NCBI GenBank assembly: GCA_031417915.1
Contig: JANOWN010000028.1
Coordinates: forward strand, 26,936-90,935
DNA: 64,000 nt
Direction: 5' to 3'
Origin: Methylotenera sp.
GTDB taxonomy: Bacteria; Pseudomonadota; Gammaproteobacteria; Burkholderiales; Methylophilaceae
The notes below the pieces were generated by a model. It saw only the letters and a program-made list of their open reading frames with translations, had not been told where the DNA came from and made no database searches. The number at the start of each line of letters is the position of its first letter. Position 1 is the first letter of the stretch. The position numbers were made by a program, and so were the translations under genes. Below, piece by piece: positions 1,558 to 60,595 of this stretch.

Positions 1558-2718
1558 TTATAAAGTATGCGATTTATCGCCACTTTTAAAACCAATCAAT
1601 GGCTCATCAAAGTTTTTACTAAACGCAATTACCTTAAACAACTCGCCCATTTCAGCTGGCGAAAGTAGTTTTTGCGCGGCGGCGGCCAGTGGCATATAAA
1701 CGGCTACATCATTTGGTGAAGTTTGACTTAAAACATCTAAAATGCCGCAATTAATTAAAAATTGTGCTTGGTTAACATGGCCTGCAATCCTTATTCCATG
1801 CGCCTGCGCCGCGTATGCAATTTGGCTAAAATCTATATGCGCAGTAATATCTTGCACGCCAATATTGATGAGCGGATTATCATGCGCGTAATGCTGATAA
1901 TGGCACATCAGCGTGCCTTGGTTACGTTGTGGATGGTAGTATTCGCGCGCTGAAAAACCATAATCGATGAGCAAAATAGCGCCGCTTTCTAAACATTCAG
2001 CCAGGCTAGCAACCAATGCTGATGCGGCTGGGCAGACTTCGGTTAAATAATCTAAAGACAAATTGCTTGGCAAATTTTCTACCAAATTAGGCGCGCTTAA
2101 CGGTGCATCTTGCCAAATAAATTCTGCTTTTTTATTTTCTGCCAAACTCACACCGCGCTCGCGCCACCCTTGGGCTGTTTTGTGCAAAATATGCACGGGA
2201 AGCGCGTCTAAAACTTCGTTGGCTAAAATCAAGCCGTTGAATTTTTTTGGCAGCGTTTCTAGCCAAATCAGCTTTTCAAATAATTCTTTTGGTAGTTTCT
2301 TTTCACAGGCTTCACGCTGAATATGGCGTAAGTAATCACTCACTTCCAGAATTAAATATTGCTTGGGCTGCTGATCAAGTTGTTGTAATTCCAGCAATAA
2401 ATCTGCCGCTAATTTGCCTGTTCCCGCCCCCAGCTCCAAAATACAGGCATCGCTATAAGCCAATATCTGCGCGGCTTGCGGAGCCATTGTTTTTGCAAAT
2501 AAAGGCGAAATTTCAGGCGCAGTGACAAAATCGCCTCCCTGCCCAAACTTTTTCGCACCACCACTGTAATAGCCCAATCTTGGCGTGTACAAAGCCATGT
2601 GCATAAAGGTCGCAAAATCTATCCAATCATTATTATTTTCAATTTTTTGTTGAATTAAATTAGTTAATTGCTGGCTAAGCACTTGCGATTCTGGGCTTGA
2701 AATAGGTAATGAGGCCAT
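1558..2718 (-). CDS. SAM-dependent methyltransferase, MidA/NDUFAF7 family
   Basis: GDFVTAPEISPLF, LELGAGTG, ANEVLDALP, IDYG and QDITAHIDF motifs. Confidence 0.92.
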   Translation of the reverse strand: MASLPISSPESQVLSQQLTNLIQQKIENNNDWIDFATFMHMALYTPRLGYYSGGAKKFGQGGDFVTAPEISPLFAKTMAPQAAQILAYSDACILELGAGTGKLAADLLLELQQLDQQPKQYLILEVSDYLRHIQREACEKKLPKELFEKLIWLETLPKKFNGLILANEVLDALPVHILHKTAQGWRERGVSLAENKKAEFIWQDAPLSAPNLVENLPSNLSLDYLTEVCPAASALVASLAECLESGAILLIDYGFSAREYYHPQRNQGTLMCHYQHYAHDNPLINIGVQDITAHIDFSQIAYAAQAHGIRIAGHVNQAQFLINCGILDVLSQTSPNDVAVYMPLAAAAQKLLSPAEMGELFKVIAFSKNFDEPLIGFKSGDKSHTL

Positions 2719-2756
2719 AAGCCATTATAATATTTTGCAATCAAAGAGAGTAAAAA

Positions 2757-3509
2757 TTGAATTCAACATCAAACAACAAAGTGATATTAATTACCGGCGG
2801 CGCCAAGCGCGTAGGCGCGGCGATTTGTCGCGAGCTGCATGCTAACGGCGCTAATTTAATGATTCACTACAAAACCAGCATTAACGAGGCGCGCGCCTTG
2901 CAGGCCGAGCTTAATTTGCAACGCGCCAATAGCGTGGCGATTATTCAGGGCGATTTGCTCAATATCGCCGTTTTACCTAGTTTGGTGCATGAAACCGTGA
3001 ATCAGTTTGGCCGTTTAGACGCGCTGATAAACAACGCTTCGACTTATTACCCCACCGAAATTGGCGCAATTTCAGAGGAAAATTGGCAAGATTTGATGGG
3101 CAGCAACCTGAAAGCGCCCATGTTTCTGGCGCAAGCAGCGGCGGCAGAATTACGCAAAAATCATGGCTGCATTGTGAATATTACAGATATGCATATTGAA
3201 CGCCCGAAGAAAAGTTATGTGGTGTATAGCGTGGCAAAAGCGGGATTAGTGACGCTGACAAAATCGCTGGCGCAAGAGCTTTCGCCCGAAGTACGCGTCA
3301 ATGCGGTTGCGCCAGGCCCCGTGCAATGGCCAGAAAACAACCCGCAATTTGATGAGGTATATCGTCAGCGCGTCATCTCGCAAACCCTGCTAAAACGCGT
3401 CGGCGAAGCCACGGATATTGCAAAAGCAGTGAACTTTTTGGTAGCCGATGCGCCTTTTATAACTGGCCATGTTCTGGTGGTGGATGGCGGGCGGAGTTTG
3501 AACTTATAA
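2757..3509 (+). CDS. folM: Pteridine reductase (SDR family)
   Basis: ITGGAKRVG, LINNAS, NITD, YSVAKAG and VNAVAPG; conserved divergent pairing with a MidA-family gene. Confidence 0.88.
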   Translation: MNSTSNNKVILITGGAKRVGAAICRELHANGANLMIHYKTSINEARALQAELNLQRANSVAIIQGDLLNIAVLPSLVHETVNQFGRLDALINNASTYYPTEIGAISEENWQDLMGSNLKAPMFLAQAAAAELRKNHGCIVNITDMHIERPKKSYVVYSVAKAGLVTLTKSLAQELSPEVRVNAVAPGPVQWPENNPQFDEVYRQRVISQTLLKRVGEATDIAKAVNFLVADAPFITGHVLVVDGGRSLNL

Positions 3510-3520
3510 TCAAGGCAAAC

Positions 3521-4228
3521 TCAGTCAACCAACCGCGCTAACTCTCGCAATTTAGCTTCAAGCAGGGGCAAACGAGCCTGGCTTGCTGCATCGCCTGGTA
3601 AATACGCAGGTATTACAGATAAAAATTCATCATTCGCCAGCAAACCATTCAATTTTTCTGCAATATATTCTTGTAAAACTCTTGGTGTCATTTTAATTTC
3701 AACAATAATAGAAGGCCTGCCATCAATCACTGTAATAATATCTTCCATATCGTGGCTCAGCAGCATGCCACCTTTGCCGCGACCTGCAAAAGCCTCAAAT
3801 TTAGTAGCAATAAACACCGGTGCTGAGATTAAGCGAATACTAGTTTCATCATCCAATTTAAAACGTATGGCGTGCTCAATTGCCAGCGGATACCATTTAT
3901 TTGCAAAACCCAATATCTTTTCGTCGGTTGGCATTACATCCACTGCCACGCCTTGATAACGCCAACGGCAAATCGGTGCATCGGCAGCCATCTCTTGTGT
4001 AAATCCCTTTGCGCGCAATTGCTTTTCTAACGCATGATAATCTTGGGTGCTTAACACGTTGGCCACAATATCAACATCATCGGTTGGGCGAATCACCTGC
4101 GCACGCTCAATGGTTACCAGCAAGCCTGCCGCGCAACCGCCCACAAACACCACCTGCTCACACAAACCGCCAAGTGCTTTTGCAATCAGCAGCAATATGG
4201 CACGATTCGGGTCGCTCACCATGATCAT
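3521..4228 (-). CDS. AbiEii/AbiGii-like nucleotidyltransferase (putative type IV toxin)
   Basis: Pol-beta superfamily NTase motifs VFVGGCAAG, RPTDDVDI, KFEAF and HDMEDI; overlaps the upstream HTH gene by 4 nt. Confidence 0.65.
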   Translation of the reverse strand: MIMVSDPNRAILLLIAKALGGLCEQVVFVGGCAAGLLVTIERAQVIRPTDDVDIVANVLSTQDYHALEKQLRAKGFTQEMAADAPICRWRYQGVAVDVMPTDEKILGFANKWYPLAIEHAIRFKLDDETSIRLISAPVFIATKFEAFAGRGKGGMLLSHDMEDIITVIDGRPSIIVEIKMTPRVLQEYIAEKLNGLLANDEFLSVIPAYLPGDAASQARLPLLEAKLRELARLVD

Positions 4229-4797
4229 TGCAAACGCTCATTTAACAGCTGTATGGCTAACTCTCTCTCACGCGCCTGCCCCATACGCAAAGCGTCAAAC
4301 AAGGCGAGTAACTCATACAATGGGGGAAACGCCTTGGCGGCCAATGGCAGCTTTTCATATAAAGGCATTAACGCCTGACCACGCTGATTACCTTCTGGGT
4401 GCGGCCAAACTGGCGGCATTTCTTGTGAGAACAGTACCTTATCACTTAACGGTGGCACGCCGTAAGCGGTGGCAAAGCCGATAGTCACTTCACCGCGCAC
4501 AGCAGGGTAGCAGTAAGCTGCACCATACATCACAAACTCCCGAATTGCTTGCATGACTGGGCGAAACTCATTGCCTGCATCTACCAACAAGCGTGCAGCA
4601 ATTAAGCGCTGCACAGAGGCATGTACTTCAAACTGAGAAAGCATCATTAGTTTAGCCAATGCAGCATAAGAGTATCGCGACTCTCTGCGTATAATGACCA
4701 ACATAAACAATACTGCCAAATCTAAAGGCTTTAACCCCCATTGGCGGTTGCTTGCGCGACGCATGGACGCTGATTTTTGATTGTCTGAAAAATACAT
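4225..4797 (-). CDS. Winged-helix-like protein, putative cognate antitoxin/regulator (AbiEi-like role)
   Basis: N-terminal HTH-like SYAALAKLMMLSQFEVHASVQRL; C-terminal VWP-x-G-x2-RG and LYELLALFDALR-G-ARER pattern; operonic with the NTase. Confidence 0.55.
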   Translation of the reverse strand: MYFSDNQKSASMRRASNRQWGLKPLDLAVLFMLVIIRRESRYSYAALAKLMMLSQFEVHASVQRLIAARLLVDAGNEFRPVMQAIREFVMYGAAYCYPAVRGEVTIGFATAYGVPPLSDKVLFSQEMPPVWPHPEGNQRGQALMPLYEKLPLAAKAFPPLYELLALFDALRMGQARERELAIQLLNERLQ

Positions 4798-4809
4798 ATA
4801 CTACACCTT

Positions 4810-4963: not shown

Positions 4964-4970
4964 ACATTGC

Positions 4971-5270: not shown

Positions 5271-5281
5271 AATACTTAACT

Positions 5282-5542: not shown

Positions 5543-5555
5543 ACGTAACTCCTAT

Positions 5556-5577: not shown

Positions 5578-5610
5578 TATCACACTTTTAAAATAACTCA
5601 GCTATTCTCG

Positions 5611-5616: not shown

Positions 5617-5623
5617 GCTAAGC

Positions 5624-10520: not shown

Positions 10521-10907
10521 ATGAAATTCCCTGAACAATTACTTTATACAGATGAGCATTTATGGGTGCTCCAGGATCCGCATGGATATTGGCTTGCAGG
10601 CATTACCGATTATGCCCAAGATTTGCTTGGTGACATTGTTTTTATCGAGCCACCAAAGCTTGGCGACAAACTAGTGAATGGCAAACCGTGTGGTATTGTG
10701 GAATCGGTGAAAACGGGCTCGGATCTGCATGCGCCTATGAATGGCGTTGTGACGGAAATTAATGAGGATTTATTGAACGCGCCTGAAGGTATTAACGATA
10801 AGCCTTATGCCGCGTGGATATTTAAGTTTAAGACTGATGATGCGCATGAAACAAAGCACTTTTTAAGCGCTACAGCTTACAAAAAACTAGTCGATGACAG
10901 CTTTTAA
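10521..10907 (+). CDS. gcvH: Glycine cleavage H protein / lipoyl carrier (standalone)
   Basis: GITDYAQDLLGDIVFI and VESVK (lipoyl Lys); ATG 10521 preferred over the ORF-finder start. Confidence 0.93.
   Translation: MKFPEQLLYTDEHLWVLQDPHGYWLAGITDYAQDLLGDIVFIEPPKLGDKLVNGKPCGIVESVKTGSDLHAPMNGVVTEINEDLLNAPEGINDKPYAAWIFKFKTDDAHETKHFLSATAYKKLVDDSF
10569..10602 (-). repeat. Intragenic copy of the AATATCCATGC-loop motif in gcvH
   Basis: Reverse complement of 10578-10601 is identical over 24 bp to 43797-43820. Confidence 0.8.
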
Positions 10908-12173: not shown

Positions 12174-12617
12174 CTATTCAATCTTATTTTGCGCATGATC
12201 GATGCTCTTAATATCGTAACCTCTATCGCGATAAAACTTAAAGCGCGCGCGCGCCGCTAGCTTGTCCTGCGCATTTTCGCCCACCAGCTCTACCAACTGC
12301 GTAAATCGACTAAAAAAACTAGGTTCATTTGCCGTTAAATTAATCAACATATCATCATGCATTAAATTATTTATTAAATCACTGCCCTGCAAGCCAATAA
12401 CCACGGGGGTTGCAGCGGCATGCAAATGATCTAATTGTACATTAGGCAAAAAACTTTCAGGCTTATTTTGCCACAAACTCGCACTCATATCACTCGCCAT
12501 TTGCTCATCCGCTGCCAAAAGCATGACTTGGCGACGCTTTAATAACGCCGATTGCACCAAACTTGCGATGGCTTGTTGCTTATCCGCTACGTTAAAATAA
12601 AATTCAATGCGCGTCAT
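12174..12617 (-). CDS. holC: DNA polymerase III chi subunit
   Basis: MTRIEFYFN, LW...SFLP, LINL and ARARFKFYRDRGY; follows pepA. Confidence 0.93.
   Translation of the reverse strand: MTRIEFYFNVADKQQAIASLVQSALLKRRQVMLLAADEQMASDMSASLWQNKPESFLPNVQLDHLHAAATPVVIGLQGSDLINNLMHDDMLINLTANEPSFFSRFTQLVELVGENAQDKLAARARFKFYRDRGYDIKSIDHAQNKIE
12383..12421 (+). repeat. Intragenic copy of the AATATCCATGC-loop hairpin in holC
   Basis: TGCCCTGCAAGCC-AATAACCACGG-GGGTTGCAGCGGCAT; both arms retained. Confidence 0.85.
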
Positions 12618-20458: not shown

Positions 20459-21864
20459 TGTTAATGGCACAGTTTAATTGCTTGGTAGTGGATGACGAAA
20501 CCGATATTCGTGAGCTAGTGGTATTGACGCTAGAGCGCATGGATATTAGGGCGGACAGTGCAGGCAACGTAGAAGAAGCCAAAGAAATGTTAAGCAAGCG
20601 CAGCTATAATTTGTGCCTCACCGATATGCGTTTGCCCGATGGTTTGGGCTTAGATTTAGTCGAGCATATTTCGGCCAATTACGCTGGCTTACCTGTGGCA
20701 GTTATTACCGCTTACGGCAGCGCTGAGAACGCCGTTTCTGCCTTAAAAGCAGGTGCGTTTGATTATTTAACCAAGCCGATTTCGCTTAAGCAGTTGCGGC
20801 CGTTGGTGGAATCTGCGCTTAAGCTTTCCAGCTCCGACGTGAAAGACACCCAAAATACCATTGATTTAATTGGCAGCTCGCCAGCCATCGATTACGTGCG
20901 CACCATGATAGAAAAGCTGGCGCGTAGCCAAGCGCCCGTTTACATCAGCGGCGAATCTGGCAGTGGTAAAGAACTTGCTGCGCGCCTAATTCACAGCAAC
21001 AGCTCGCGCCGTGATAAAGCTTTCATTGCAGTCAACTGCGGCGCGATACCAGAAAATTTGATGGAAAGTGAATTTTTTGGCTACAAAAAAGGGGCGTTCA
21101 CTGGCGCCGCGCAAGATACCATCGGCTTATTTCAAGCTGCCAATGGCGGAACACTTTTCTTAGACGAAGTCGCTGATTTGCCACTGGCGATGCAGGTCAA
21201 ATTATTGCGCGCGATTCAAGAGAAAAAAGTGCGCACGGTGGGTGGCACGGCGGAAGAAGCGGTGGATGCGCGCATTATTAGCGCGACGCACAAAAACCTG
21301 AGCACCTTAATGGCGCAAGGATTATTTAGGCAAGATTTATACTACCGCCTGAATGTGATTCAACTCAAAATGCCTGCATTAAGAGACAGGCCAGAAGATA
21401 TTCCTGAGCTCACGCAAAAGTTGTTGCAAAAACTCTGTCAGTCACAATCCATTGAGGTGCCCTTGCTGGAAGATAGTGCCAATAAGCTTATTTCTGAGCT
21501 GCATTTTGCTGGCAATGTGCGCGAGCTAGAAAACATGCTGGAACGTGCACTAGCCTTGTGTGATGGCAAAAAAATCGACGCGGATGATTTATTTATGGGC
21601 GAAGAAGTGACAGCCAGCGCACATAAAAATAAAAACGAGGGTGAAGAAAATCACTTTAACCCCAGCAAAACTTTAGAAATCGGTTTGCCAGAATATTTGG
21701 AAGATATCGAAAAGCGTGCGATTTTGAAGGCTCTAGAAAAAGCCAATAACAACAAAACAGCGGCGGCAAAATTGTTGGGCGTAAGTTTTAGAACGCTCAG
21801 ATATCGATTAACTAAGTTGGGTTTAGCTAAAGAAGATGAAGCGGATTTAGAAGAAGAAGACTAA
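20458..21864 (+). CDS. pilR: Sigma54-dependent response regulator PilR
   Basis: Receiver domain, GESGSGKE, GAFTGA, Fis-type HTH. Confidence 0.9.
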   Translation: MLMAQFNCLVVDDETDIRELVVLTLERMDIRADSAGNVEEAKEMLSKRSYNLCLTDMRLPDGLGLDLVEHISANYAGLPVAVITAYGSAENAVSALKAGAFDYLTKPISLKQLRPLVESALKLSSSDVKDTQNTIDLIGSSPAIDYVRTMIEKLARSQAPVYISGESGSGKELAARLIHSNSSRRDKAFIAVNCGAIPENLMESEFFGYKKGAFTGAAQDTIGLFQAANGGTLFLDEVADLPLAMQVKLLRAIQEKKVRTVGGTAEEAVDARIISATHKNLSTLMAQGLFRQDLYYRLNVIQLKMPALRDRPEDIPELTQKLLQKLCQSQSIEVPLLEDSANKLISELHFAGNVRELENMLERALALCDGKKIDADDLFMGEEVTASAHKNKNEGEENHFNPSKTLEIGLPEYLEDIEKRAILKALEKANNNKTAAAKLLGVSFRTLRYRLTKLGLAKEDEADLEEED

Positions 21865-21879: not shown

Positions 21880-21913
21880 ATGCTCTGCAGACCAATATCC
21901 ATGCGGCCTGCAA
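21880..21913 (+). repeat. Intergenic AATATCCATGC-loop hairpin
   Basis: ATGCTCTGCAGACC-AATATCCATGC-GGCCTGCAAG between convergent genes. Confidence 0.85.
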
Positions 21914-21918
21914 GTCTG

Positions 21919-21941
21919 CACTGGAATGCTTTAGTCCAGTG
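21919..21941. repeat. Companion hairpin (also present degraded at 52385-52409)
   Basis: CACTGGA-N9-TCCAGTG; reverse complement of 21914-21934 matches 52394-52414 at 19/21. Confidence 0.6.
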
Positions 21942-21960
21942 GACTTATTAAAAAGCTAGA

Positions 21961-23026: not shown

Positions 23027-23578
23027 ATGGCAAACCCAAAATTAAAAATTCAGCCATTAAAGTTAAATGCTGCTGGCTATGTGAAATCTGCCAAGCAAAT
23101 TGCCTCACCAAACTTTGATGCAAGACCTGAGAACAAAAAAATTGATTTAATTGTGATTCATAACATCAGCCTGCCACCTAATATCTATGGGGGTGCTGGC
23201 GTAGAGCAATTATTTACCAATCAGCTTAATCCGAGCGAACATCCTTATTATGCGGAGATTCACACCCGCAAAGTCTCGTCGCACTTTTTCATTCGGCGCG
23301 ATGGCGAACTGATACAATTTGTGTCGTGCCTTCAGCGCGCTTGGCATGCGGGCGTTTCTAGTTGGCAAGGCCGTGAACGTTGTAACGATTTCTCAGTCGG
23401 AATAGAGCTGGAAGGCAGTGATTTTGAGGCATTTGAGCCTGCACAGTACAAAACACTTACTTTATTACTAAAAGCTTTAAAAAAGACTTATCCGATTCAA
23501 CATATTGTAGGGCATTCAGACATCGCGCCAGGCCGTAAAACCGACCCTGGCCCTTATTTTGAGTGGGCCAAAATTTAA
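23027..23578 (+). CDS. ampD: 1,6-anhydro-N-acetylmuramyl-L-alanine amidase
   Basis: IVIHNISLPP, RAWHAGVS, CNDFSVGIELEG and HSDIAPGRKTDPG motifs. Confidence 0.96.
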   Translation: MANPKLKIQPLKLNAAGYVKSAKQIASPNFDARPENKKIDLIVIHNISLPPNIYGGAGVEQLFTNQLNPSEHPYYAEIHTRKVSSHFFIRRDGELIQFVSCLQRAWHAGVSSWQGRERCNDFSVGIELEGSDFEAFEPAQYKTLTLLLKALKKTYPIQHIVGHSDIAPGRKTDPGPYFEWAKI

Positions 23579-27841: not shown

Positions 27842-27880
27842 ATGCTCTGCGAGACAATATCCATGCGGTCTGCAGGGCAT
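27842..27880 (+). repeat. Intergenic AATATCCATGC-loop hairpin
   Basis: ATGCTCTGCGAGAC-AATATCCATGC-GGTCTGCAGGGCAT between convergent genes. Confidence 0.88.
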
Positions 27881-27883: not shown

Positions 27884-29119
27884 TTATTTGTTTGAAACAA
27901 GTTTTTGCACAACTAAACTGCCTATCATATCGCCTTCCACATTCACCGTGGTGCGTAGCGTATCGAGTAGCCTATCAATCGGCAGCAATATCGCAATCGC
28001 CTCGGCTGGCAAACCAACACTTTGCAGCACCATCACCATGGTGACCATGCCCGCGCTGGGAATGCCTGGCGCGCCAATGGCGGCTATCATCGCCATTAAA
28101 AATACAATGAGTTGCTGCACAAAACTCAGCTCAATGCCGACCAAATTAGCAATAAATAGCGCGGCGGCGGCCTCATAAAGAGCAGTGCCATCCATATTCA
28201 CAGTTGCGCCTAACGGCACGACAAAACCAGCAATTTCCAGTTTGACTTGCAGCGGCCCAGTGGTACAGCACATGGTAATCGGTAGCGTGGCGTTGCTGGA
28301 GCTGGTGGCGAAGGCCGTTACTAGTGCTTCGCGCGCGCCGCGCCAAAACCACAGCGGCGATCTACCTGTAATTAAATACAATAATAAAGGCAAAATGATT
28401 ACGCCGTGAATGAGCGTGGTGCTAACAACCACCGCGACAAATTTAGCCAGCGTGCCTATCATCGCCACATCTTGCGTGGCGACCAGTTTGGCCAGCAGCG
28501 CGGCGATACCAAACGGCGCCAGCACCATAATCCAGCTCACAATGCGCATGGTGATTTCTAGGCCTTCTTGCATCAGCGCGAGAATATTTTTGTAACGCTC
28601 GCCGCCCATCACCAGCGCGATGCCTAAAATAAGCGCGAATATGACCACCGCCAGCACATCGCCTTTTGCCAAAGCGGTGACCGGATTCATAAAAAGGCCG
28701 TGTAAAAATTGCGCAAAAAACTCGGGCAAGGGTAATTGTTGCGCTTTTACTTGCCCCATGGCATCGGCAAACATGTTAATTTGCATGCCTACACCAGGCT
28801 TGAAATATAGGCTGGCAGCCATGCCCAGCGTGATTGCGATGGCCATGGTAAACATAAAAAATACCATGGTAGAAATCCACACGCGGTGCATTTGCTGATG
28901 TTGGCGCAAATTGGCAATGCCGACCGCAATGGAGCAAAACACCAGCGGAATTAAAATCATTTTGAGCAAATCGATAAACAGCGTACCGATTAAGCCAAAC
29001 ACATACAAACTACCTTTTGTGAAGCCATTGTCTGCGCCAAGGCCGTGAAAATACAAACCGACCACCACGCCAAGCACTGCGCCGATTAAAATTTGAACAT
29101 TCAGGCTAGGTAGTTTCAT
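27884..29119 (-). CDS. Dicarboxylate/amino acid:cation symporter (DAACS)
   Basis: AFATSSSNATLP, GATVNMDGTALY and DRLLDTLRT motifs. Confidence 0.93.
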   Translation of the reverse strand: MKLPSLNVQILIGAVLGVVVGLYFHGLGADNGFTKGSLYVFGLIGTLFIDLLKMILIPLVFCSIAVGIANLRQHQQMHRVWISTMVFFMFTMAIAITLGMAASLYFKPGVGMQINMFADAMGQVKAQQLPLPEFFAQFLHGLFMNPVTALAKGDVLAVVIFALILGIALVMGGERYKNILALMQEGLEITMRIVSWIMVLAPFGIAALLAKLVATQDVAMIGTLAKFVAVVVSTTLIHGVIILPLLLYLITGRSPLWFWRGAREALVTAFATSSSNATLPITMCCTTGPLQVKLEIAGFVVPLGATVNMDGTALYEAAAALFIANLVGIELSFVQQLIVFLMAMIAAIGAPGIPSAGMVTMVMVLQSVGLPAEAIAILLPIDRLLDTLRTTVNVEGDMIGSLVVQKLVSNK

Positions 29120-29155
29120 GGTTCAAGACCTTTACTTAAAATATTGCCCGTGTAC

Positions 29156-29240
29156 CGTCATTCTGAGTCCAAGTTTTATTTGGGCGAAGAATCTAGTTTT
29201 TATTTCAAATACTGGATTCTTCGCTACGCTCAGAATGACG
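29156..29240. repeat. Inverted pair of CGTC-tagged REP-like units (29156-29196 and 29212-29240)
   Basis: 29212-29240 is the exact reverse complement of 1520-1548; the left unit has an expanded loop. Confidence 0.9.
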
Positions 29241-29252
29241 ATTGGGGAAATT

Positions 29253-30686
29253 TTACTCTTTGGCAACTTTTGGTTTCACTGTTTTAGGTTTAACCGTTTT
29301 TTCTTTCACAGTTTTAGGATTAACATCAGTCTCTGGTGATTCTCCAGCATCCGCATGGATATTGCCTTCCATGGCAGTTATTTTGGGCTTAATATTTGTT
29401 TTATCTGCTTCTACTTTACGCTCAAACACTGCCGCAAAAAAACCATCGGTACCGTGCAGATGCGGCAATAGTTTTAAATATTTTCCTGTATCCAGCTTGA
29501 TTTGTTGCTGTGCCAATATTTCACTTGCAGGCATCAACCTAAATTCAGGGTTTGCGCTTAAAAACGCTTCGGCAATCGCTTCATTTTCATCTTGCATCAA
29601 GCTACAAGTAGCGTAGATTAAGCGTCCGCCCGCTTTAGTGAGTTTGGCAGCACGCGCTAAAATTGCGGCTTGCTTCACGTTTAATTCGGCAATATCTTTT
29701 TCTTCAAACCGCCATTTTAAGTCAGGATTCCTGCGCAGCGTGCCAAAACCGCTACATGGCGCGTCGACCAACACGCGATCAAACTTGCCGTTTAAGCGTT
29801 TTAATTTTGGGTCAGTTTCACTGCTAATGACTTGCGCATGCAAGTTAGATAAACCCGAGCGTTTTAGACGTTTACCCAAATTCATTAAACGTTTTTCTGA
29901 CACATCAAACGCGTACAAACGGCCAGTGTTCTTCATCAATGCGCCGATTGCCAAGGTTTTTCCGCCCGCGCCTGCGCAAAAATCGGCCACCATTTGCCCA
30001 CGTTTGGGCGCGACTAAATAACTTAAAAGCTGACTGCCTTCATCTTGTACTTCGATTTTTCCTTCAGTAAACAATACATGCTTGCTAATGTTCATGCGCC
30101 CTGGCATGCGAATGCCGATTGGCGAATGCGGCGTAATTTCGATGGTGTTTTCGTTAGAAGTATTTTCTGCCAACATTCTTTTTAGCGTGTCTTCGCGATT
30201 GCCTTTGATGGTGTTGACGCGCAAATCCAAGCTCGCTTGCTCGTGCATGCTGCGGCAAATCGTCAGCGCTTCCGCCTCGCCATATTGCGCTACCAGCTTG
30301 TGCCACAGCCAATCGCGCACATCGGCCTGCACGGCCAAAGGCAGGTTTTCAGTCGATTTAGCTTTAATGGTGTGCGCCCACTCAGTTTGCTGCTCATTGA
30401 GCACCGATTCCATCTCGCGTATGCTTTTGCCCTGCACGCGCAACAACCACGCCAATATGAGCTTACGCGCATCATCTGGGTCATTTTCCTCATTTGCGGT
30501 AACGGTGCTTAAATAACGCAAACGGCGCAACACGCCATAGACGCTCTCGGCCACAAAAGCGCGATCCTTTGTACCTAAATCGCGATTATTGCGAAAAAAG
30601 TCGCTCAATTTTGCATCCGCTGGGCTATTAAAATCGAGTATATTGGCCAGCATCATTGCAGCTTGACGGATTAAATTTGGAGTCAT
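29253..30686 (-). CDS. RsmB/NOP family class I SAM-dependent RNA methyltransferase with Lys-rich C-terminal extension
   Basis: VQDEGSQ, DFCAGAGGKT, DAPCSG, YATCS and TDGFF motifs. Confidence 0.92.
   Translation of the reverse strand: MTPNLIRQAAMMLANILDFNSPADAKLSDFFRNNRDLGTKDRAFVAESVYGVLRRLRYLSTVTANEENDPDDARKLILAWLLRVQGKSIREMESVLNEQQTEWAHTIKAKSTENLPLAVQADVRDWLWHKLVAQYGEAEALTICRSMHEQASLDLRVNTIKGNREDTLKRMLAENTSNENTIEITPHSPIGIRMPGRMNISKHVLFTEGKIEVQDEGSQLLSYLVAPKRGQMVADFCAGAGGKTLAIGALMKNTGRLYAFDVSEKRLMNLGKRLKRSGLSNLHAQVISSETDPKLKRLNGKFDRVLVDAPCSGFGTLRRNPDLKWRFEEKDIAELNVKQAAILARAAKLTKAGGRLIYATCSLMQDENEAIAEAFLSANPEFRLMPASEILAQQQIKLDTGKYLKLLPHLHGTDGFFAAVFERKVEADKTNIKPKITAMEGNIHADAGESPETDVNPKTVKEKTVKPKTVKPKVAKE
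29342..29376 (-). repeat. Intragenic copy of the AATATCCATGC-loop motif in the RsmB-family gene
   Basis: TGCCATGGAAGGC-AATATCCATGC-GGATGCTGGAG; 31/35 identical to the gcvH copy. Confidence 0.75.
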
Positions 30687-34855: not shown

Positions 34856-35458
34856 ATGAAGCAATTACTACTCGACATTAAACCTGCGGCCGCGCCAACA
34901 TTAGATAATTTTATTGTTGGCCGCAACGCAGAAGCATTAGCGAGTTTAAAAGCTGTGATTGCGGGCGAGCAAACAAAATTTGTCTACTTTTGGGGCCAAA
35001 CTGGTAGTGGAAAATCACATTTACTATCGGCCTGCAAGGCAATAGGCATGCGGGTGCATGATAATGTACATTTATTGAATATCGATGCACAAATTGCACT
35101 ATTCAACCAATATAATCAGCTAAAAGAAGTAGATGAAATATTAATTACCGCTGGCTTACACGCGCCTACGCAAATGGGGCTGCGCGATGATTTGGCCACC
35201 CGCTTGGCTTGGGGCTTGGTGTATCAATTGCATCCGCTGAATGACGATGAAAAAGCACAGGCACTAAAACTACATGCGCTTGAGCGTGGCATGAAACTGC
35301 CCGATGAAGTCACCGATTACTGCCTGCGCTACTTGCGCCGCGACTTACCCACTTTAATGGCGACTTTAGATGCATTGGATGAATGGTCATTGACTGAGAA
35401 AAAACCTGTGACTGTACCGATGTTGAAAAAGCTATTGCAGTTGGATTTGGGGATTTAA
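34856..35458 (+). CDS. hda: DnaA regulatory inactivator Hda (short form)
   Basis: QLLLDI clamp-binding motif, GQTGSGKS, DLATRLAWG, RRDLPTL. Confidence 0.9.
   Translation: MKQLLLDIKPAAAPTLDNFIVGRNAEALASLKAVIAGEQTKFVYFWGQTGSGKSHLLSACKAIGMRVHDNVHLLNIDAQIALFNQYNQLKEVDEILITAGLHAPTQMGLRDDLATRLAWGLVYQLHPLNDDEKAQALKLHALERGMKLPDEVTDYCLRYLRRDLPTLMATLDALDEWSLTEKKPVTVPMLKKLLQLDLGI
35029..35058 (+). repeat. Intragenic copy of the AATATCCATGC-loop motif in hda
   Basis: GGCCTGCAAGGC-AATAGGCATGC-GGGTGCA; 3 substitutions and 1 gap vs consensus. Confidence 0.7.
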
Positions 35459-39346: not shown

Positions 39347-39679
39347 CTAGCCTTGTATTACCGCAATATCTTGCGTGGCCGTTGCGCCTACATTATCGTG
39401 CCACGTCACAGATATAGTGTCGCCAACTTTTGCACCTTTTAAATAAAATGTGAGATAAGGATTTTTAGAAATCCCTGTGCCCCACTGCATTTCTAGTACG
39501 GGCTGATTATTTAAAGTCGCGGTGACTAACTGAATAAAATGCGCGGGAATCAGTTGCCCAAAATCATCTTTTTTGCGACCTGTTTCCATCGGGTGGCTGA
39601 TAATCACCTTGACTTCCGTAACACCACCAGAGGTCGTGTCACCTTTTAGCTTCGCGCGCATTTTCATGTTGCTGTCCAT
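39347..39679 (-). CDS. soxZ: Sulfur carrier complex protein SoxZ
   Basis: HPMETG, IPAHFI and WG-GISKNP motifs; ATGA overlap with soxY. Confidence 0.88.
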   Translation of the reverse strand: MDSNMKMRAKLKGDTTSGGVTEVKVIISHPMETGRKKDDFGQLIPAHFIQLVTATLNNQPVLEMQWGTGISKNPYLTFYLKGAKVGDTISVTWHDNVGATATQDIAVIQG

Positions 39680-40137
39680 CACCCACAACCGTTTTCAAGC
39701 ACAACTACATTTTTCGACGCAGTAAAATATTGGTCGCCAGCTTTTACCACTATTTTTATATCCGATGTCTCAGCCATTTTGATGCGTGTGACCAATTGCG
39801 GCAGCGCGCCGTTGCTGAACATAAAATTGCCGATGAGCGCAGTTGGATTTTTCTCAACAAACACGGCAATAGCTTCGGTATTCGGGATGCGGCTGTTAAT
39901 TTCAAGCTGCACAATCGCACCATTTTCAGCTTTATCTGGCGCGATAATTTCAATGTCTTTGCTTAAAATTTCGCCATTTATCTCCAAGCTCTTTTCTGCT
40001 TCCTCCAATTTAATCGCCTCAAAAGCGGCTTTATTCCATGCTGCAGCGATGGCTCTGAGAGGCAATAGCAGAGAGGCTCCCAGGGCTGCTCCTAACACGC
40101 CTAAAAAATCTCTACGTTTTAAATTGATGGGTCGCAT
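39679..40137 (-). CDS. soxY: Sulfur carrier protein SoxY (Tat-exported)
   Basis: RRDFL Tat motif, APDKAENGAIV, EKNP, TRIKMAETS, terminal GCG. Confidence 0.88.
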   Translation of the reverse strand: MRPINLKRRDFLGVLGAALGASLLLPLRAIAAAWNKAAFEAIKLEEAEKSLEINGEILSKDIEIIAPDKAENGAIVQLEINSRIPNTEAIAVFVEKNPTALIGNFMFSNGALPQLVTRIKMAETSDIKIVVKAGDQYFTASKNVVVLENGCG

Positions 40138-43793: not shown

Positions 43794-43832
43794 ATGGCCT
43801 GCAAGCCAATATCCATGCGGCTCTCAGGGCAT
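43794..43832 (+). repeat. Intergenic AATATCCATGC-loop hairpin
   Basis: ATGGCCTGCAAGCC-AATATCCATGC-GGCTCTCAGGGCAT between convergent genes. Confidence 0.88.
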
Positions 43833-52352: not shown

Positions 52353-52384
52353 AAATATCAAAATAGATAAATATCGAAATAGAT
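52353..52384. repeat. 16-bp tandem duplication
   Basis: AAATATCAAAATAGAT followed by AAATATCGAAATAGAT. Confidence 0.7.
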
Positions 52385-52411
52385 GTCACCGAACTAAAGC
52401 TTTCCAGTGCA

Positions 52412-52447
52412 GGCCTGCGAACCAATATTCATGCGGGTTGCAGGCAT
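52412..52447 (+). repeat. Intergenic AATATCCATGC-loop hairpin
   Basis: GGCCTGCGAACC-AATATTCATGC-GGGTTGCAGGCAT between rpoN and hpf. Confidence 0.85.
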
Positions 52448-52613
52448 GGTGTTTTTAATGATTTAGAAAACATTTAAATAATTTACACAAATAGCCCACT
52501 TGGCTAGTTGCGCGCAATTGCCAAAGGTGTACACTAAAATTGTTTAAAAGGTTTTAGTTGATCAACCGATTTGGGCAAAAAACCTTTTGAACAATTTCAA
52601 TAAGGAGCAAGTC

Positions 52614-57319: not shown

Positions 57320-57336
57320 CTAGAAAAGGAATCACC

Positions 57337-57678: not shown

Positions 57679-57723
57679 TTGCCCAAGATTAGTTATAAGA
57701 TTAATTAACTAAAGAGAGATTTT

Positions 57724-59751
57724 GTGTCAAATCCATTACTGCATTTTGCTGGCTTACCTAAATTTAATGAGATAAAACCAGAGCATGTTTCACCCGCACT
57801 TGATTTGCTTTTAAGCGAGGGAAGGAAAACAATTGATGTCCTAGCAACCAATAGGGACGCGCCCTCCTGGCAGGGCTTTACGCTTAAATTGGAAGATTTA
57901 GACGAAAAAATATCACGCGCTTGGAGCCAAGTTGGGCATATGAATTCGGTGGTGAATAGCCCAGAATTACGCGAAGCCTATAACGATAATTTAGTAAAAC
58001 TCACCGATTTTTATAGCGATTTGGCGCAGGATGAGCGACTTTACACGAAATATCGTGCCATTAAAAACAGTGCGGAATTTTCAAAATTAAATAGTGCACA
58101 GCAAAAAATTATCAATAACGAAGTGCGTGATTTCAAACTCGGCGGCGCCGAATTGCCAGCAGATAAAAAAGCGCGCTTTAAAGCGATTAGCGAAGAACTT
58201 TCAAAACTTGCCGCTAAATTTGAAGAAAACGTGCTCGATACCACCAATGAATACGCGCTTTACGAGGCAGATGAATCCAAGCTAACTGGTATTCCTGAAG
58301 ACGTTTTGCAAGCTGCAAAAGAAGCCGCAATAGATAATAAAAAAACAGGCTATAAATTTACCCTGCATTTCCCCAGCTATTTACCTGTGCTGCAATACGC
58401 CGATAATCGTGAATTGCGCGAAACGCTTTATCGCGCTTACGCCACGCGCGCTTCGGAGTTCGGCAAACCAGAATTTGATAACACGCCGATTATTACGCAA
58501 CTATTAAAACTGCGCGAAGAAGAAGCAAAACTGCTGGATTTTAACAACTTCGCCGAGCTATCACTCGCCACAAAAATGGCCGACACACCAAAACAAGTAA
58601 TTGAGTTTTTGCAGAATTTAGCCCAAAAAGCTAAACCTTATGCTGCACAAGACAAATTAGAGCTTGAAACTTATGCCAAACAACTTGGCATTGACGATAT
58701 GCAAGCGTGGGACGTGGCTTACGTGAGCGAAAAGCTGCGCGAAGACAAATATGCGTTTTCTGATTTAGAAGTGAAGCAATACTTTCCTGAAGCCAAAGTG
58801 ATGGCGGGTTTGTTTAAAGTAGTAGAAACTATTTTTGGCGTATTCGTAACAAAAACCAGCGCGCCGACTTGGCATAAAGACGCGCATTTTTACGAAATTA
58901 CCGACCATAACAGTAAGCTTATCGGCCAATTTTATTTAGACTTATATGCCCGCAACAACAAGCGCGGCGGTGCTTGGATGGACGAAGCCATTACGCGCCG
59001 CGTGGTGGACAACAAGCTCACCACGCCAGTAGCGTATTTAACCTGCAACTTCAGCGCACCTGTTGGCGATAAACCTGCGCTATTTACGCACGATGAAGTC
59101 ATCACTATGTTCCACGAGTTTGGTCACGGCTTGCACCACATGCTCACAAAAGTAAACGATTACAGCGTTTCTGGCATTAAAGGTGTGGAGTGGGACGCGG
59201 TAGAACTACCCAGCCAGTTTATGGAAAACTTTTGCTGGGAATGGGATGTGCTGCGCCACATGACACAACATGTGGACACCGGCGCGCAATTGCCACGCGA
59301 ACTCTTCGACAAAATGGTCGCCGCCAAAAACTTTCAAGCAGGTATGCAAACCGTGCGCCAAATTGAATTTTCGTTATTCGACATTAAATTACACAGCGAA
59401 TTTAACCCAAATGGCAGTAAGTCCTCTTTAGATTTAATTGAAGAAATCCGTGATTCTGTAGCAGTAGTGCGGCCACCCAAATGGAATCGCTTTCCCAACA
59501 ATTTTAGCCACATTTTCGCTGGTGGCTACGCGGCGGGCTATTACAGCTACAAATGGGCAGAAGTTTTATCAGCCGATGCCTACAGCTTATTTGAAGAAAA
59601 CGGCGTGTTAAGCGCAGAAACTGGCCAAAAATTCTGGAACGAGATTTTAGCGCAAGGCGGCAGCCGCACTGCGATAGAATCGTTTGTCGCCTTCCGTGGT
59701 CGAGAACCCAGCATTGATGCGCTTCTCAGACATAATGGAATGAGCAATTGA
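57724..59751 (+). CDS. prlC: Oligopeptidase A (M3)
   Basis: GGAWM, HEFGH, DAVELPSQFME and YAAGYYSYKWAE motifs. Confidence 0.95.
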   Translation: MSNPLLHFAGLPKFNEIKPEHVSPALDLLLSEGRKTIDVLATNRDAPSWQGFTLKLEDLDEKISRAWSQVGHMNSVVNSPELREAYNDNLVKLTDFYSDLAQDERLYTKYRAIKNSAEFSKLNSAQQKIINNEVRDFKLGGAELPADKKARFKAISEELSKLAAKFEENVLDTTNEYALYEADESKLTGIPEDVLQAAKEAAIDNKKTGYKFTLHFPSYLPVLQYADNRELRETLYRAYATRASEFGKPEFDNTPIITQLLKLREEEAKLLDFNNFAELSLATKMADTPKQVIEFLQNLAQKAKPYAAQDKLELETYAKQLGIDDMQAWDVAYVSEKLREDKYAFSDLEVKQYFPEAKVMAGLFKVVETIFGVFVTKTSAPTWHKDAHFYEITDHNSKLIGQFYLDLYARNNKRGGAWMDEAITRRVVDNKLTTPVAYLTCNFSAPVGDKPALFTHDEVITMFHEFGHGLHHMLTKVNDYSVSGIKGVEWDAVELPSQFMENFCWEWDVLRHMTQHVDTGAQLPRELFDKMVAAKNFQAGMQTVRQIEFSLFDIKLHSEFNPNGSKSSLDLIEEIRDSVAVVRPPKWNRFPNNFSHIFAGGYAAGYYSYKWAEVLSADAYSLFEENGVLSAETGQKFWNEILAQGGSRTAIESFVAFRGREPSIDALLRHNGMSN

Positions 59752-60527
59752 AATTAGCAACATGGAACGTCAACTCTCTTAACGTGCGCTTGCCGCACGT
59801 TTTAGATTGGCTGCGTGACAACCCAATTGACGTGCTGTGCTTGCAAGAAACCAAGCAAGAAGACATTAAGTTTCCGTATGATGATTTGAAAAGTGCGGGT
59901 TACAACGCGATTCACCTTGGTCAAAAAACCTATAACGGCGTGGCGATTTTAAGTAAGCACGACATGACCGATATTGAGCATGGCATTGCCAACTTTGAGG
60001 ACGAACAAAAACGGGTGATTTCGGCTACGATTAACCATAACGGCAATAATCTGCGTGTCATTTGCGTCTACATTGTGAACGGCCAAGCCGTTGATAGCGA
60101 AAAATACGAATACAAAATGCGTTGGCTAAAGGCGCTTATTGATTGGCTTGCAGGTGAACTGAAAAAATACCCTAACTTAGTACTTTTGGGCGATTACAAT
60201 ATTGCGCCAGAAGATCGCGATTGCCACGACCCTGCGGCGTGGATTGGGCAGATTTTAGTTTCGCCACGCGAGCGTGAGATGTTTAAAAAGCTTACCCAGC
60301 TTGGGCTGCACGATAGTTTTAGATTGTTTGAGCAAGCCGATAAACAATTTTCTTGGTGGGATTATCGCATGATGGGGTTTAGGCGTAATTTTGGTATGCG
60401 CATTGACCATATTTTGGTGAGTGATGGCTTAAAAAGTAAGTGTGAAAGCTGCATGATTGATAAAGCGCCACGCAAGTTGGAGCGTCCATCTGACCACACA
60501 CCTGTGGTGTTAACTTTGGCGAATTAA
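59748..60527 (+). CDS. xth: Exodeoxyribonuclease III
   Basis: TWNVNS, LQETK, YNGVAI, GDYN, RIDH and SDH motifs. Confidence 0.95.
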   Translation: MKLATWNVNSLNVRLPHVLDWLRDNPIDVLCLQETKQEDIKFPYDDLKSAGYNAIHLGQKTYNGVAILSKHDMTDIEHGIANFEDEQKRVISATINHNGNNLRVICVYIVNGQAVDSEKYEYKMRWLKALIDWLAGELKKYPNLVLLGDYNIAPEDRDCHDPAAWIGQILVSPREREMFKKLTQLGLHDSFRLFEQADKQFSWWDYRMMGFRRNFGMRIDHILVSDGLKSKCESCMIDKAPRKLERPSDHTPVVLTLAN

Positions 60528-60552
60528 TTTAATTGAAATAAATTGAAAAAAT

Positions 60553-60595
60553 ATGCCCTGGGAGCCAATATCCATGCGGGAGGGGTTGCAGGGCA
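60553..60595 (+). repeat. Intergenic AATATCCATGC-loop hairpin with an insertion in the right arm
   Basis: ATGCCCTGGGAGCC-AATATCCATGC-GGGAGGGGTTGCAGGGCA between convergent genes. Confidence 0.85.

Follow-up and report, generated by a model that had tools for sequence, protein, structure and literature searches.

The genome of this Methylotenera carries a 39-nt word (consensus aTGCCCTGCAAGCC-AATATCCATGC-GGsTTGCAGGGCAt) whose centre is almost invariant, which is conserved as a sequence and not as a hairpin maintained by its structure, and whose copies inside genes arose through base substitution. Using a 39-nt weight matrix we recover around 606 copies in the 2.07-Mb genome, as compared to 2 in a reversed-sequence control, the genome (G000) being a MAG of 92% completeness, a caveat for the absence of a RAYT transposase given below. 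The word is found on both strands all over the genome, has an asymmetric core of 16–18 nt, and reaches a density of one per 3.4 kb considering all copies and one per 14 kb considering those with the exact loop; the most over-represented 10-mers genome-wide all derive from it, the top one occurring 215 times against about 5.6 expected. What is recognised is the sequence, most likely in duplex DNA and by a putative protein. As to its origin, we tentatively favour a word akin to the uptake sequences USS and DUS, possibly spread by biased transfer and recombination, its gene-end copies probably being terminators as well.

Within the window, by which we mean the whole stretch of 64,000 nucleotides that was analysed, the matrix detects 17 copies, and those described individually are collected in Table 1. 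The original prediction had listed about 11 copies of a hairpin in this stretch. All eleven exist, at or within 10 nt of where they had been placed, but the one at 1777 is weak and the extent of the family, both here and genome-wide, had been underestimated. That the loop AATATCCATGC is nearly invariant was borne out, with 7 exact occurrences in the window and 13 with at most one mismatch, where 1.8 would be expected and none of 100 shuffles gave more than 6. As had also been noted, convergent genes flank four of the five intergenic copies, tandem genes flanking the fifth (52410), and others fall inside housekeeping coding sequences, which Pfam assigns to Methyltransf_28, GcvH, HolC, RsmB and Hda. 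A 12-bit match at 20523 is ordinary conserved coding sequence, present in element-free species too.

Table 1. Word copies and associated hairpin modules in the window, by position.
Feature	Position	Strand	Score (bits)	Details
Weak copy in Methyltransf_28 gene	1777..1815	+	9.6	
Copy in Methyltransf_28 gene	2448..2486	+	23.0	
Copy in gcvH	10566..10604	-	41.8	exact loop; antisense to gene; encodes VLQDPHGYWLAGI
Copy in holC	12382..12420	+	35.3	loop AATAACCACGG; over conserved TPVVI segment
Intergenic copy	21880..21918	+	45.0	exact loop; spacer between convergent pilR-like (sigma-54 activator) and Na/Ca-exchanger genes
Second hairpin module GCACTGGAATGCTTTAGTCCAGTGGAC	21918..21944	+		joined directly to 21880 copy
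Copy in 183-aa gene (23027-23578)	23166..23204	+	24.4	encodes SLPPNIYGGAGV
Intergenic copy	27842..27880	+	48.9	most of 56-nt convergent spacer between 1040-aa transporter and SDF symporter genes
Copy in RsmB-family gene	29339..29377	-	40.7	sense strand; encodes AMEGNIHADAGE
Copy in hda	35027..35065	+	25.0	encodes SACKAIGMRVH
Weak copy	40050..40088	+	16.2	signal-peptide region of gene 39679-40137
Intergenic copy	43794..43832	+	54.6	best of window; convergent spacer, then T-run
Second hairpin module	about 52384-52410	-		precedes 52410 copy
Intergenic copy	52410..52448	+	42.1	loop AATATTCATGC; tandem spacer
Intergenic copy	60553..60591	+	37.4	convergent spacer; right arm with short insertion (GGGAGGGGTTGCAGGGCA)

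The arms had been described as varying while mostly keeping their pairing, a claim that does not survive the comparison of copies. The mutual information between left and right arms is at noise level (≤0.14 bit vs around 0.05 expected, n=128), and the arms of a given copy form 7.96 of 14 Watson-Crick pairs, as compared to 8.17±0.15 when arms are swapped between copies; stem positions 3 and 6 are mismatched in most copies. Since there is no covariation between the arms, and since intragenic copies, which are often unable to form the hairpin, need not fold, it is the sequence and not the structure that is conserved. Within the window, the copy in gcvH does not fold as a hairpin, and that at 27842 has an RNA fold of −19.4 kcal/mol (z=−3.1). 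In respect to structured families of the Rfam type, we found neither compensatory changes nor a match to a curated model, considering the window at the gathering threshold and composite copies at permissive E-values. The argument for a recognition site that was built on compensating arms thus fails for lack of covariation; the general proposal of a recognition sequence that is neither an ordinary terminator nor a REP element nevertheless holds, with no Rfam match and no Y1/RAYT transposase found in the genome.

These results bear on the view that the word acts at the RNA level, as a hairpin loop bound by an RNA-binding protein or an RNase on mRNA 3' ends or tRNA trailers, which we regard as very improbable. 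The antisense loop GCAUGGAUAUU does expose a GGA, which CsrA sites have too, AAUAU is similar to a site of RNase E, and copies are placed at gene 3' ends; also, several contigs have the core right behind the CCA of a tRNA, and in this genome a degenerate form of it follows the tRNA-Lys. On the loop-sense strand, G-T wobble pairs are about 1.8 times as frequent as A-C pairs. However, besides the missing compensatory changes, the missing Rfam match and the intragenic copies that often cannot form the hairpin, the strand that would be transcribed is inconsistent, being mostly antisense in tandem spacers (39 antisense vs 22 sense) and mostly sense inside genes (93 sense vs 41 antisense). The absence of arm covariation fits the recognition of duplex DNA.

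The share of copies within genes is 49–70%, with 423 of the 606 lying in called genes. Real coding sequences contain 423, 222 and 134 matches at ≥8, 20 and 30 bits, whereas shuffling synonymous codons leaves 132, 31 and 4, and shuffling the codon order 15, 0 and 0, which upholds the intragenic excess implied by the original prediction. At the same thresholds, 296, 155 and 89 copies are at least 150 nt away from both gene ends. Intragenic copies are evenly spread along genes, and 76 out of 134 are read in one frame (~ALQANIHAGSGA), an ALQANIHA-like peptide being present in more than 100 genes; no stop codon interrupts the consensus in any of its six frames, and the word is rarest in the most codon-biased genes. 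Matches amount to 292 per Mb, vs 12.5 in the orthologous DNA of element-free relatives, and 160 kb of syntenic DNA from two such relatives contains 2.

The base-substitutional origin of the intragenic copies is evident from alignments, as eight of the nine in the window are colinear with element-free orthologues. The ninth (29339) sits in the C-terminal tail of the RsmB-family protein, which is poorly conserved and differs in length between species. In gcvH the Pfam GCV_H domain spans the copy site without insertion, the gene length is identical in 20 of 23 species (exceptions being G018, G011 and G008), and, when species are compared, its sequence approaches the word in graded steps. The copy in hda is gapless against G021 and G023 (ACKAIGANV and ACKALGAKV), and so is that in the 183-aa gene, whose orthologues have SLPPNQYGGNG at this site. 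In being a palindromic repeat inside essential genes, with all six frames open, the word recalls the Rickettsia palindromic elements (RPE), a selfish DNA of protein-coding genes; these are, however, in-frame insertions of 100–150 bp which add residues, whereas the Methylotenera word rewrote existing codons and added none, and an RPE-like insertion was rejected on account of the colinear alignments.

At gene ends, A-rich and T-rich flanks are seen on the copies. Of the copies with ≥30 bits, 79 lie in convergent, 61 in tandem and 8 in divergent spacers, and a copy is present at 50% of the convergent gene junctions. A T-rich tail is present on only about 30% of the intergenic copies. A simple terminator scan does not call the word sites because the 11-nt loop is outside the classical range (3–8 nt), and their position fits operon ends; judging from this position, the gene-end copies probably also act as transcription terminators. 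Composite forms comprise the second hairpin module, which in the form GCACTGGAATGCTTTAGTCCAGTGGAC constitutes a family of around 20 in the genome, and 55-nt inserts within the right arm. In G013, G012 and G002 the spacer occupied at 21880 likewise contains a copy, the one in G002 being flipped; 18 other species lack it.

Across genomes, the word marks a single sub-clade of the genus, the sister clade having none (17 word-bearing vs 7 word-free species), and species differ in copy number, the range being 3 to 106, with 70 in G013. In no case among 400 genomes sampled across the class is the 15-mer core present more than once; four have single matches, and the three inspected belong to ordinary coding sequence. 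That the element-free clade uses a 'dialect' of its own was also considered and rejected, as no comparable over-represented 10-mer appears in 80 kb each of G021 and G023.

Both the gene-end preference and this distribution are relevant to the proposal that the word is a mobile palindrome, REP/BIME- or MITE-like, which is copied in trans into gene ends as a terminator or mRNA stabiliser and reaches genes by short-patch conversion from the many intergenic copies. The likeness to REP/BIME elements (RIB/RIP; BIME-1, two inverted REPs around an IHF site) lies in several features: an imperfect palindrome of ~35–40 bp at 3' ends, occupying half of the convergent spacers, organized as an arm, a conserved asymmetric centre and an inverted arm, with mosaic composites, a patchy presence, a loop flipped at one orthologous spacer and variable copy numbers. 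However, enterobacterial REPs are extragenic, have a GTAG head and are tied to RAYT, whereas the word is mostly intragenic and substitutional, and Y1_Tnp/RAYT (PF01797) is absent from both the 92% complete MAG and the 70-copy G013, the presence of RAYT being uncorrelated with copy number; the head, from position frequencies, is ATGCCC, and the centre, compared by eye, does not fit the IHF consensus as in BIME-1. Also, the flanks display no target duplication or direct repeat, as MITEs would leave, intragenic copies are colinear with their orthologues and not insertions, and the arms lack the linkage which descent from master copies would create. Conversion by RecA usually needs repeats longer than 39 nt. 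Altogether, we consider this proposal improbable.

The core of the word is found outside Methylotenera, a fact which an uptake signal does not predict. IMG/VR contigs contain the exact 18-mer CCAATATCCATGCGGGTT at 67 or more sites, and over 120 stretches of metagenome DNA with 38–68% GC, unrelated to this genome, have it too. In viral contigs it lies between contig-specific direct and inverted repeats, 70–350 nt past the 3' end of primase-helicase genes with PriCT_2, Toprim_3, DUF5906, VapE or DUF927 domains, while in other contigs it starts exactly at the tRNA 3' CCA, adjoining integrase genes. These are ori-like or att-like places, the former being putative origins; Rfam returned nothing at sixteen such viral loci. 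The same arrangement, with an identical 18-nt core between iterons 3' of primase-helicase genes, is that of P4-like, PICI-like and prophage replicons, and the arms of the Methylotenera word are similar to one such pair of inverted iterons. The iterons of L268 (ACCCTGCAC) and of the Pseudomonas phage PAJU2 (GGCCTGTAAG) resemble the arm CCCTGCAAG. Unlike the word, the replicon sites are single-copy, on mobile DNA and in unrelated, GC-richer hosts.

From these observations, the word could form an array of sites bound by a conserved protein, with a function in replication, recombination or DNA architecture, which mobile replicons use too, the core serving them as ori or att site and the arms acting like inverted iterons, with chromosomal copies being kept by selection (for chromosome organisation, replication restart or as a defence decoy) or spread by the protein itself. 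The viral and metagenomic cores, their location, the iterons resembling the arm and the lack of arm covariation argue for it, yet we consider it doubtful. No homologue of those primase-helicases was found in this genome, DUF5906 helicases are sporadic in word-bearing and word-free clades alike, and the 10-kb neighbourhoods of DUF5906 genes in six Methylotenera genomes contain no core-like site with up to 4 mismatches; on these same grounds a resident primase-helicase replicon was rejected as the source. In addition, selection for binding at individual sites would probably be too weak to have rewritten amino acids in over 100 places, and the core, compared by eye, fits neither the DnaA-box nor the IHF consensus.

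Of the three options originally put forward for a recognition site, an uptake-like sequence is the best fit, considering the substitutional origin, the frame bias, the restriction to one clade and the absence from an O-antigen island that is laterally exchanged. The word is unlikely to act in segregation or in orienting replication, since its strand and the local GC skew are not associated (odds ratio 1.39, p=0.16), whereas genes show the expected bias in the same comparison. An oriented word of the Chi/KOPS type was rejected for the same lack of orientation skew.

If the word is indeed of the uptake type, it would spread by a directional process, a molecular drive, and not by transposition. 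DNA with better matches would be transferred preferentially between cells of the clade and installed by homologous recombination, so that point mutations towards the word would accumulate everywhere, genes included. At gene 3' ends, where coding constraint is absent, the full-length word could be attained, and there the two-fold arms and the A/T runs would probably also provide a bidirectional transcription stop. The directional force, we infer, would be biased DNA uptake or transfer. Drive by accumulation of mutations, which is proposed here, has been shown for the USS of Pasteurellaceae and the DUS of Neisseriaceae. Uptake sequences lie in open reading frames to the extent of 34–65%, with a reading-frame bias and at residues of low conservation, and genes that lack homologues do not contain them (PMC2817400). 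In common with these, the Methylotenera word is hyper-abundant, lineage-specific and present on both strands, has a large intragenic share acquired by substitution, with a reading-frame bias and an imprint on peptides and codons, is possibly rare in laterally acquired genes, and forms inverted repeats at gene ends. The 10 kb around a prophage-type helicase in G013 has zero copies, and the largest word-free stretch is a low-GC O-antigen cluster, which is also the largest atypical region, although around 1.4 gaps of that size are expected by chance. On the other hand, the word is longer (39 nt vs 9–12 nt, or 29–32 nt for the extended USS) and its density 3 to 10 times lower than the roughly one per kb of USS/DUS, and its core is shared with phage-like ori/att regions.

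The link to type IV pili which had been drawn is weak. The genome encodes an uptake machinery, with ComEC and a ComP_DUS-family pilin, but both occur in the element-free clade as well. The pilin shares 76% identity with its counterpart in the element-free G023 and only 54% with that in the element-rich G013. The pilin type does not follow the word, so that no receptor candidate tracks it, and co-variation with a ComP-type receptor was rejected. The pilSR pair originally annotated in the window is supported by Pfam only as a pilR-like sigma-54 activator, and a literature search found no report of natural transformation in Methylotenera. In a combined scenario, which appears rather unlikely, the word would be a new self-DNA tag, evolved independently in the sub-clade, whose core is a satellite or prophage iteron/att site, its reader being a replication, recombination or packaging protein and not a pilin, with the drive operating via a satellite-, phage- or GTA-like route or a competence step after the pilus.

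To our knowledge, genome words of the uptake type have experimental support in no more than two families of bacteria, and there is still debate on which force creates them. If free-living freshwater methylotrophs provided a third case, the drive model could be tested in another system, with the advantages of a much longer word, a word-free sister clade and graded intermediates at orthologous codons. A satellite-, phage- or GTA-like or post-pilus drive, if true, would represent a previously undescribed mechanism that drives a sequence genome-wide, and the shared phage-like core, if functional, would point to a DNA-binding activity common to many Proteobacteria and undescribed by sequence in the searchable literature. 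The word also illustrates how strongly a DNA-level signal can rewrite proteins, could serve in practice to tell native from acquired DNA in these genomes, and matters for annotation in that it is open in six frames and occupies half of the convergent junctions.

Resemblances to other known sequences were also considered. Those of the core to the DnaA box, IHF, dif and T-DNA-border/IncP nick sites are, we presume, all partial, and none is claimed. On the minus strand, TGGATA-N5-TTGCA has the correct −24/−12 spacing of a sigma-54 promoter, a reading dropped since, by visual comparison, the viral core copies do not retain the −12 part. The sequence GCCAATATTGGC was rejected as a separate family, having only 25 sites, mostly ordinary coding sequence, and searching the literature for the sequence of the word returned only primers and chance matches. 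A parallel is HIP1 (GCGATCGC) of cyanobacteria, an over-represented palindromic word in and outside genes subject to DNA-level selection or drive, whose reader had long been unknown and which three recent reports connect with methylation and transformation (PMC5861425, PMC4390886, bioRxiv 10.1101/2024.09.10.611283). HIP1 is an 8-bp perfect palindrome recognised by methyltransferases, whereas the Methylotenera word extends over 39 nt around a non-palindromic centre.

The 11-nt centre AATATCCATGC of the repeat has seven exact occurrences in the window, or 13 if one mismatch is allowed (expected 1.8; maximum of 100 shuffles, 6), and every copy named in the original prediction was recovered, each no more than 10 nt from its predicted place. 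Four of the five intergenic copies do lie between convergent genes, and the intragenic location likewise holds, as the genes concerned contain clear Pfam domains (Methyltransf_28, GCV_H, DNA_pol3_chi, RsmB and Hda). The family is thus confirmed in its existence but not in its size, put at about 11 copies in 64 kb: it is very large, so that only a small part of it had been seen. Indeed, a 39-nt weight matrix built from exact-loop copies of the same genome that was then scanned yields 606 non-overlapping matches at ≥8 bits, 17 of them in the window, versus 2 in the reversed genome. The source genome, a Methylotenera MAG of 2.07 Mb in 66 contigs with 44.9% GC, contains 145 exact loops; its 15 commonest 10-mers all derive from this word, with 215 occurrences of AATATCCATG alone where about 5.6 are expected. 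Alignment of the copies yields the consensus AAAA.A..aTGCCCTGCAAGCC-AATATCCATGC-GGsTTgCAGgGCAt..TTTT.

Conservation is of sequence and not of structure: the arms have two-fold pseudo-symmetry and the centre is asymmetric. The proposal that changes in one arm are compensated in the other fails, as the mutual information between left and right arms is at noise level and partner-swapped arms pair equally well: across the 78 intergenic copies with an exact loop, 7.96 of 14 Watson-Crick pairs form between arms of the same copy, versus a mean of 8.17 ± 0.15 after dealing the right arms among copies. This outcome is unchanged when G-U pairs are allowed and for intragenic copies, the only covariation being between adjacent positions of the same arm. 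In most copies two positions of the stem fail to pair, the predicted folds are modest (−13 to −22 kcal/mol, z −0.7 to −3.1), and for the gcvH and rsmB copies the hairpin is entirely missing from the predicted fold. Rfam has no family that matches the window or the word's composite forms.

We have analyzed the location of the word using crude gene calls from codon log-odds (1981 genes, 91.7% coding), on which the genome-wide intragenic counts rest, the intragenic cases of the window being covered by Pfam and orthologue alignment. Of the 606 matches, 423 are intragenic and evenly spread along gene length, and 296, 155, 89 and 35 (at ≥8, 20, 30 and 40 bits) are separated from either end of the gene by 150 nt or more. 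All six frames of the consensus are open; of the 134 intragenic copies at ≥30 bits, the sense strand carries 93, and a single frame is used by 76, which encode (A/G)LQ(A/T/P)NIHA(G/A)xxA. At ≥8, 14, 20, 30 and 40 bits real coding sequences contain 423, 274, 222, 134 and 58 matches, versus 132, 68, 31, 4 and 0 after a synonymous-codon shuffle that keeps the proteins, and 15, 2, 0, 0 and 0 after a codon-order shuffle. The codon-shuffle comparison proposed with the original prediction thus shows a clear excess (222 versus 31 at ≥20 bits). Syntenic DNA of two element-free relatives (160 kb) holds only 2 matches, both at one conserved LERMDIRAD coding site. The excess over these three controls indicates that amino acid sequences and synonymous codon choice both bear the imprint of the word. 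In gcvH, the conserved H-protein motif AWIFK is encoded by a second loop-like 11-mer, AATATCCACGC, whose counterpart in another species (G004) is the exact AATATCCATGCGG; this shows that pre-existing codon context can seed partial matches.

Judged from alignments, the intragenic copies arose by substitution and not by insertion. Window positions 721-42181 are syntenic with G021 and G023, two complete genomes free of the element; of the nine intragenic copies in that stretch, eight align to the orthologous protein with no insertion the size of the motif, and the ninth lies in the length-variable RsmB tail. The gcvH segment is of equal length in 20 of 23 species (exceptions G018, G011 and G008). 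At this site element-free species have GTGAGCCAATCGCCTACTGGCGAATGG... (VSQSPTGEW) and the source genome GTGCTCCAGGATCCGCATGGATATTGGCTTGCAGGCAT (VLQDPHGYWLAG), with graded intermediates in other species (GATGGCAACTGGCTTGCGGG, GATGGAATATGGCTTACAGGCAT, CATGGAGATTGGCTTGCAGGCAT); here 29 identical bases are common to three species of different sub-branches, in a region that is overall 71-78% identical. A similar pattern is observed in holC, around conserved TPVVI codons. A reading of the Hda copy as the mark of a deletion was rejected, since the short Walker A-B interval is also found in element-free species.

Between genes, convergent spacers hold 79 copies at ≥30 bits, tandem spacers 61 and divergent spacers 8, although just 12% of spacers are of the convergent type. 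A copy is found in 83 of the 166 convergent spacers that are 20 nt or longer, compared with 8.6% of tandem and 5% of divergent ones. A-rich upstream flanks accompany 32% of intergenic and 11% of internal copies, T-rich downstream flanks 30% and 17%, and random positions have 4-5% in either case. The position at gene ends fits a classical terminator, but a simple terminator scan does not reach loops of 11 nt and calls none of these sites; a terminator role is likely a secondary use of these copies, as a candidate only. At the convergent spacer between a pilR-like gene and a Na-Ca exchanger, whose length varies from 13 to 261 nt across species, the word is present in the source genome, G013, G012 and G002, with its centre flipped in the last, and absent in 18 other species, closest relatives included. 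This patchiness indicates that gene-end copies turn over and can flip. In G021 the same spacer has an unrelated hairpin, and the SDF symporter/rsmB tandem spacer of the window carries a different long inverted repeat, also unrelated to the word.

The word is confined to one branch of the genus. Exact 13-mers number 106 in the source genome, 0 to 70 in 24 congeners and 0 or 1 in 16 other families of the order. A tree of five linked proteins places the seven species that have 0-1 copies in a single clade (support 99) and the other seventeen, all of them with copies, in its sister (support 94). In a sample of 400 genomes from across the class, the 15-mer core never occurs more than once per genome; of the four single matches, the three inspected are ordinary coding sequence.

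Several processes might have spread such a word. A REP/RAYT system was rejected: the Y1 transposase (Y1_Tnp) was not found in the source MAG, 92% complete, or in the element-rich G013, and elsewhere its presence is independent of copy number; neither a GTAG head nor a target duplication was found at word copies. A REP-like element combined with gene conversion appears quite unlikely to us. Composite forms do exist, since a second hairpin family, GCACTGGAATGCTTTAGTCCAGTGGC followed by a T-run, directly abuts the word in either relative orientation, and the two make up a BIME-like mosaic. Outside the window, 10 + 5 copies carry a structured insert of some 55 nt in the right arm, which breaks off after GGGTT and resumes with TACAGGGCAT past the insert; nothing in Rfam matches these copies. 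An oriented word of the Chi or KOPS type was also rejected, local GC skew not being associated (OR 1.39, p = 0.16) and genes showing the expected bias. The transcribed strand is inconsistent (39 antisense and 22 sense in tandem spacers, 93 sense and 41 antisense inside genes), which disfavours an RNA-level function, a role we consider highly improbable.

The core of the word recurs outside the genus. An IMG/VR scan for the 15-mer gave more than 120 contigs, near a rough chance value (chance expectations for the collection scans are our own estimates), and at 67 or more sites the core is followed by GTT, for which 1 in 64 is expected. These contigs have 48-65% GC and no similarity to the source genome. 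In many, the 18-mer CCAATATCCATGCGGGTT is flanked by contig-specific direct and inverted repeats (CCGTAAC/GTTACGG, ATCGGAACA, ATACCGCACA, CAGGGGACA, ACCCTGCAC, GGTTAACAG), 70-350 nt past the 3' end of a primase-helicase gene (PriCT_2, Toprim_3, DUF5906, VapE-like or DUF927), in either orientation relative to it and often near a GC-rich alternating purine-pyrimidine tract, GTGTGCGTGCGCGCACACA. This layout is that of a predicted iteron-type origin. In other contigs the start of the core coincides with the 3' CCA of various tRNA genes or fragments, several beside an integrase gene; in the source genome a tRNA-Lys gene reads CCA|ATATCCAAGCGGTTT and then a terminator. Pseudomonas phages PAJU2 and YMC11/02/R656 have a variant hairpin, GAAACCC-AGTAACCATGC-GGGTTTC, between two GGCCTGTAAG repeats; in both, the spacer is unannotated and belongs to the early-left region. 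More than 120 further metagenome stretches (38-68% GC) include Methylotenera-like contigs and iteron and tRNA-CCA contexts, with full arms in a few contigs of 61-62% GC, e.g. GATGCCCTGGAAGCC...GGGTTCCAGGGCATC. On visual comparison, the core bears only a partial resemblance to a DnaA box, the IncP/T-DNA nick region and a sigma-54 promoter. That the word is a protein-binding array, common to mobile-element origins, is in our judgement rather unlikely. A resident replicon as its source is disfavoured, since a homologue of the viral primase-helicase was not found in the 92%-complete MAG, DUF5906 helicases are sporadic in word-bearing and word-free clades, and no core-like site lies within the 10-kb neighbourhoods of DUF5906 genes in six Methylotenera genomes.

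Locations of the sequence features (C, contigs of the source genome; L, loci from IMG/VR or other scans)
Feature	Location	Strand	Detail
Second loop-like 11-mer, gcvH	window 10812-10822	-	
Second hairpin family	window 21918-21944	+	about 20 further copies in genome
Second hairpin family	window ~52384-52410	-	
Long inverted repeat, SDF symporter/rsmB	window 29119-29253		CCGTCATTCTGAGTCCAAG ... GCTACGCTCAGAATGACGA
Type A insert	e.g. C28:6827, C9:6117, C47:43504		TCGCATTCGACTTAGTGCTTTAGCACTTAGCGAGAATGGTGATGCCAAGAACTGG
Type C insert	e.g. C49:35044, C42:12072		TCGCGCATGAATAACCAGCTTTAGCTGGTATATTCTGCGG...
18-mer between iterons	L183, L186, L190, L195, L224, L244, L257, L268, L286 and others		GC-rich phage-like contigs
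Core at tRNA CCA	L245, L255, L256, L327, L388, L399, L419, L441; C51:1130-1205		C51 site: tRNA-Lys
PAJU2 hairpin	L302 3501-3525 (record 30359-30383)		unannotated spacer, early-left region
YMC11/02/R656 hairpin	L303		
ComP_DUS-family pilin gene	C42:61235-61462; L156-L175	-	strand for C42
Largest word-free stretch	C45:17250-44049		26.8 kb, 41.5% GC

The largest word-free stretch of the source genome has a low codon score (about 1.4 gaps of its size are expected by chance) and is an O-antigen-type/polysaccharide cluster (Wzt ABC transporter, DegT aminotransferase, GT1, GT2), probably laterally exchanged DNA. When genes are grouped in quartiles of codon bias, the most biased quartile has the lowest density of the word. 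The substitutional origin, graded intermediates, position independence, frame and codon imprint, restriction to one clade and apparent absence from atypical DNA together speak for a directional process at the level of DNA sequence, and to our knowledge only biased transfer with homologous recombination, as for the uptake sequences USS and DUS, is well documented as such. Repeats and mobile genes may be missing from the MAG, which is 92% complete. We tentatively read the word as USS/DUS-like and driven in this way, an analogy we hold possible; the probability left over by this and the other readings named above falls to explanations outside those considered here. The word resembles USS and DUS in its ORF share, reading-frame bias and placement at poorly conserved residues, and its O-antigen gap and low density in codon-biased genes may also fit the published pattern (PMC2817400). 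In the work of Findlay and Redfield, ORFs contain 65%, 49% and 34.5% of such sequences, and genes that lack homologues contain none (PMC2817400). Uptake-type drive and a protein-binding array may have one common reader. ComEC and a ComP_DUS-family pilin are encoded in word-bearing and word-free clades alike. The pilin was rejected as a word-tracking receptor on its identities: the source-genome protein is closer to its counterpart in element-free G023 (76% identity) than to the one in element-rich G013 (54%). Across the genus this pilin comes in three or more very different types, whose distribution departs from the species tree, and this suggests allele exchange at the locus.
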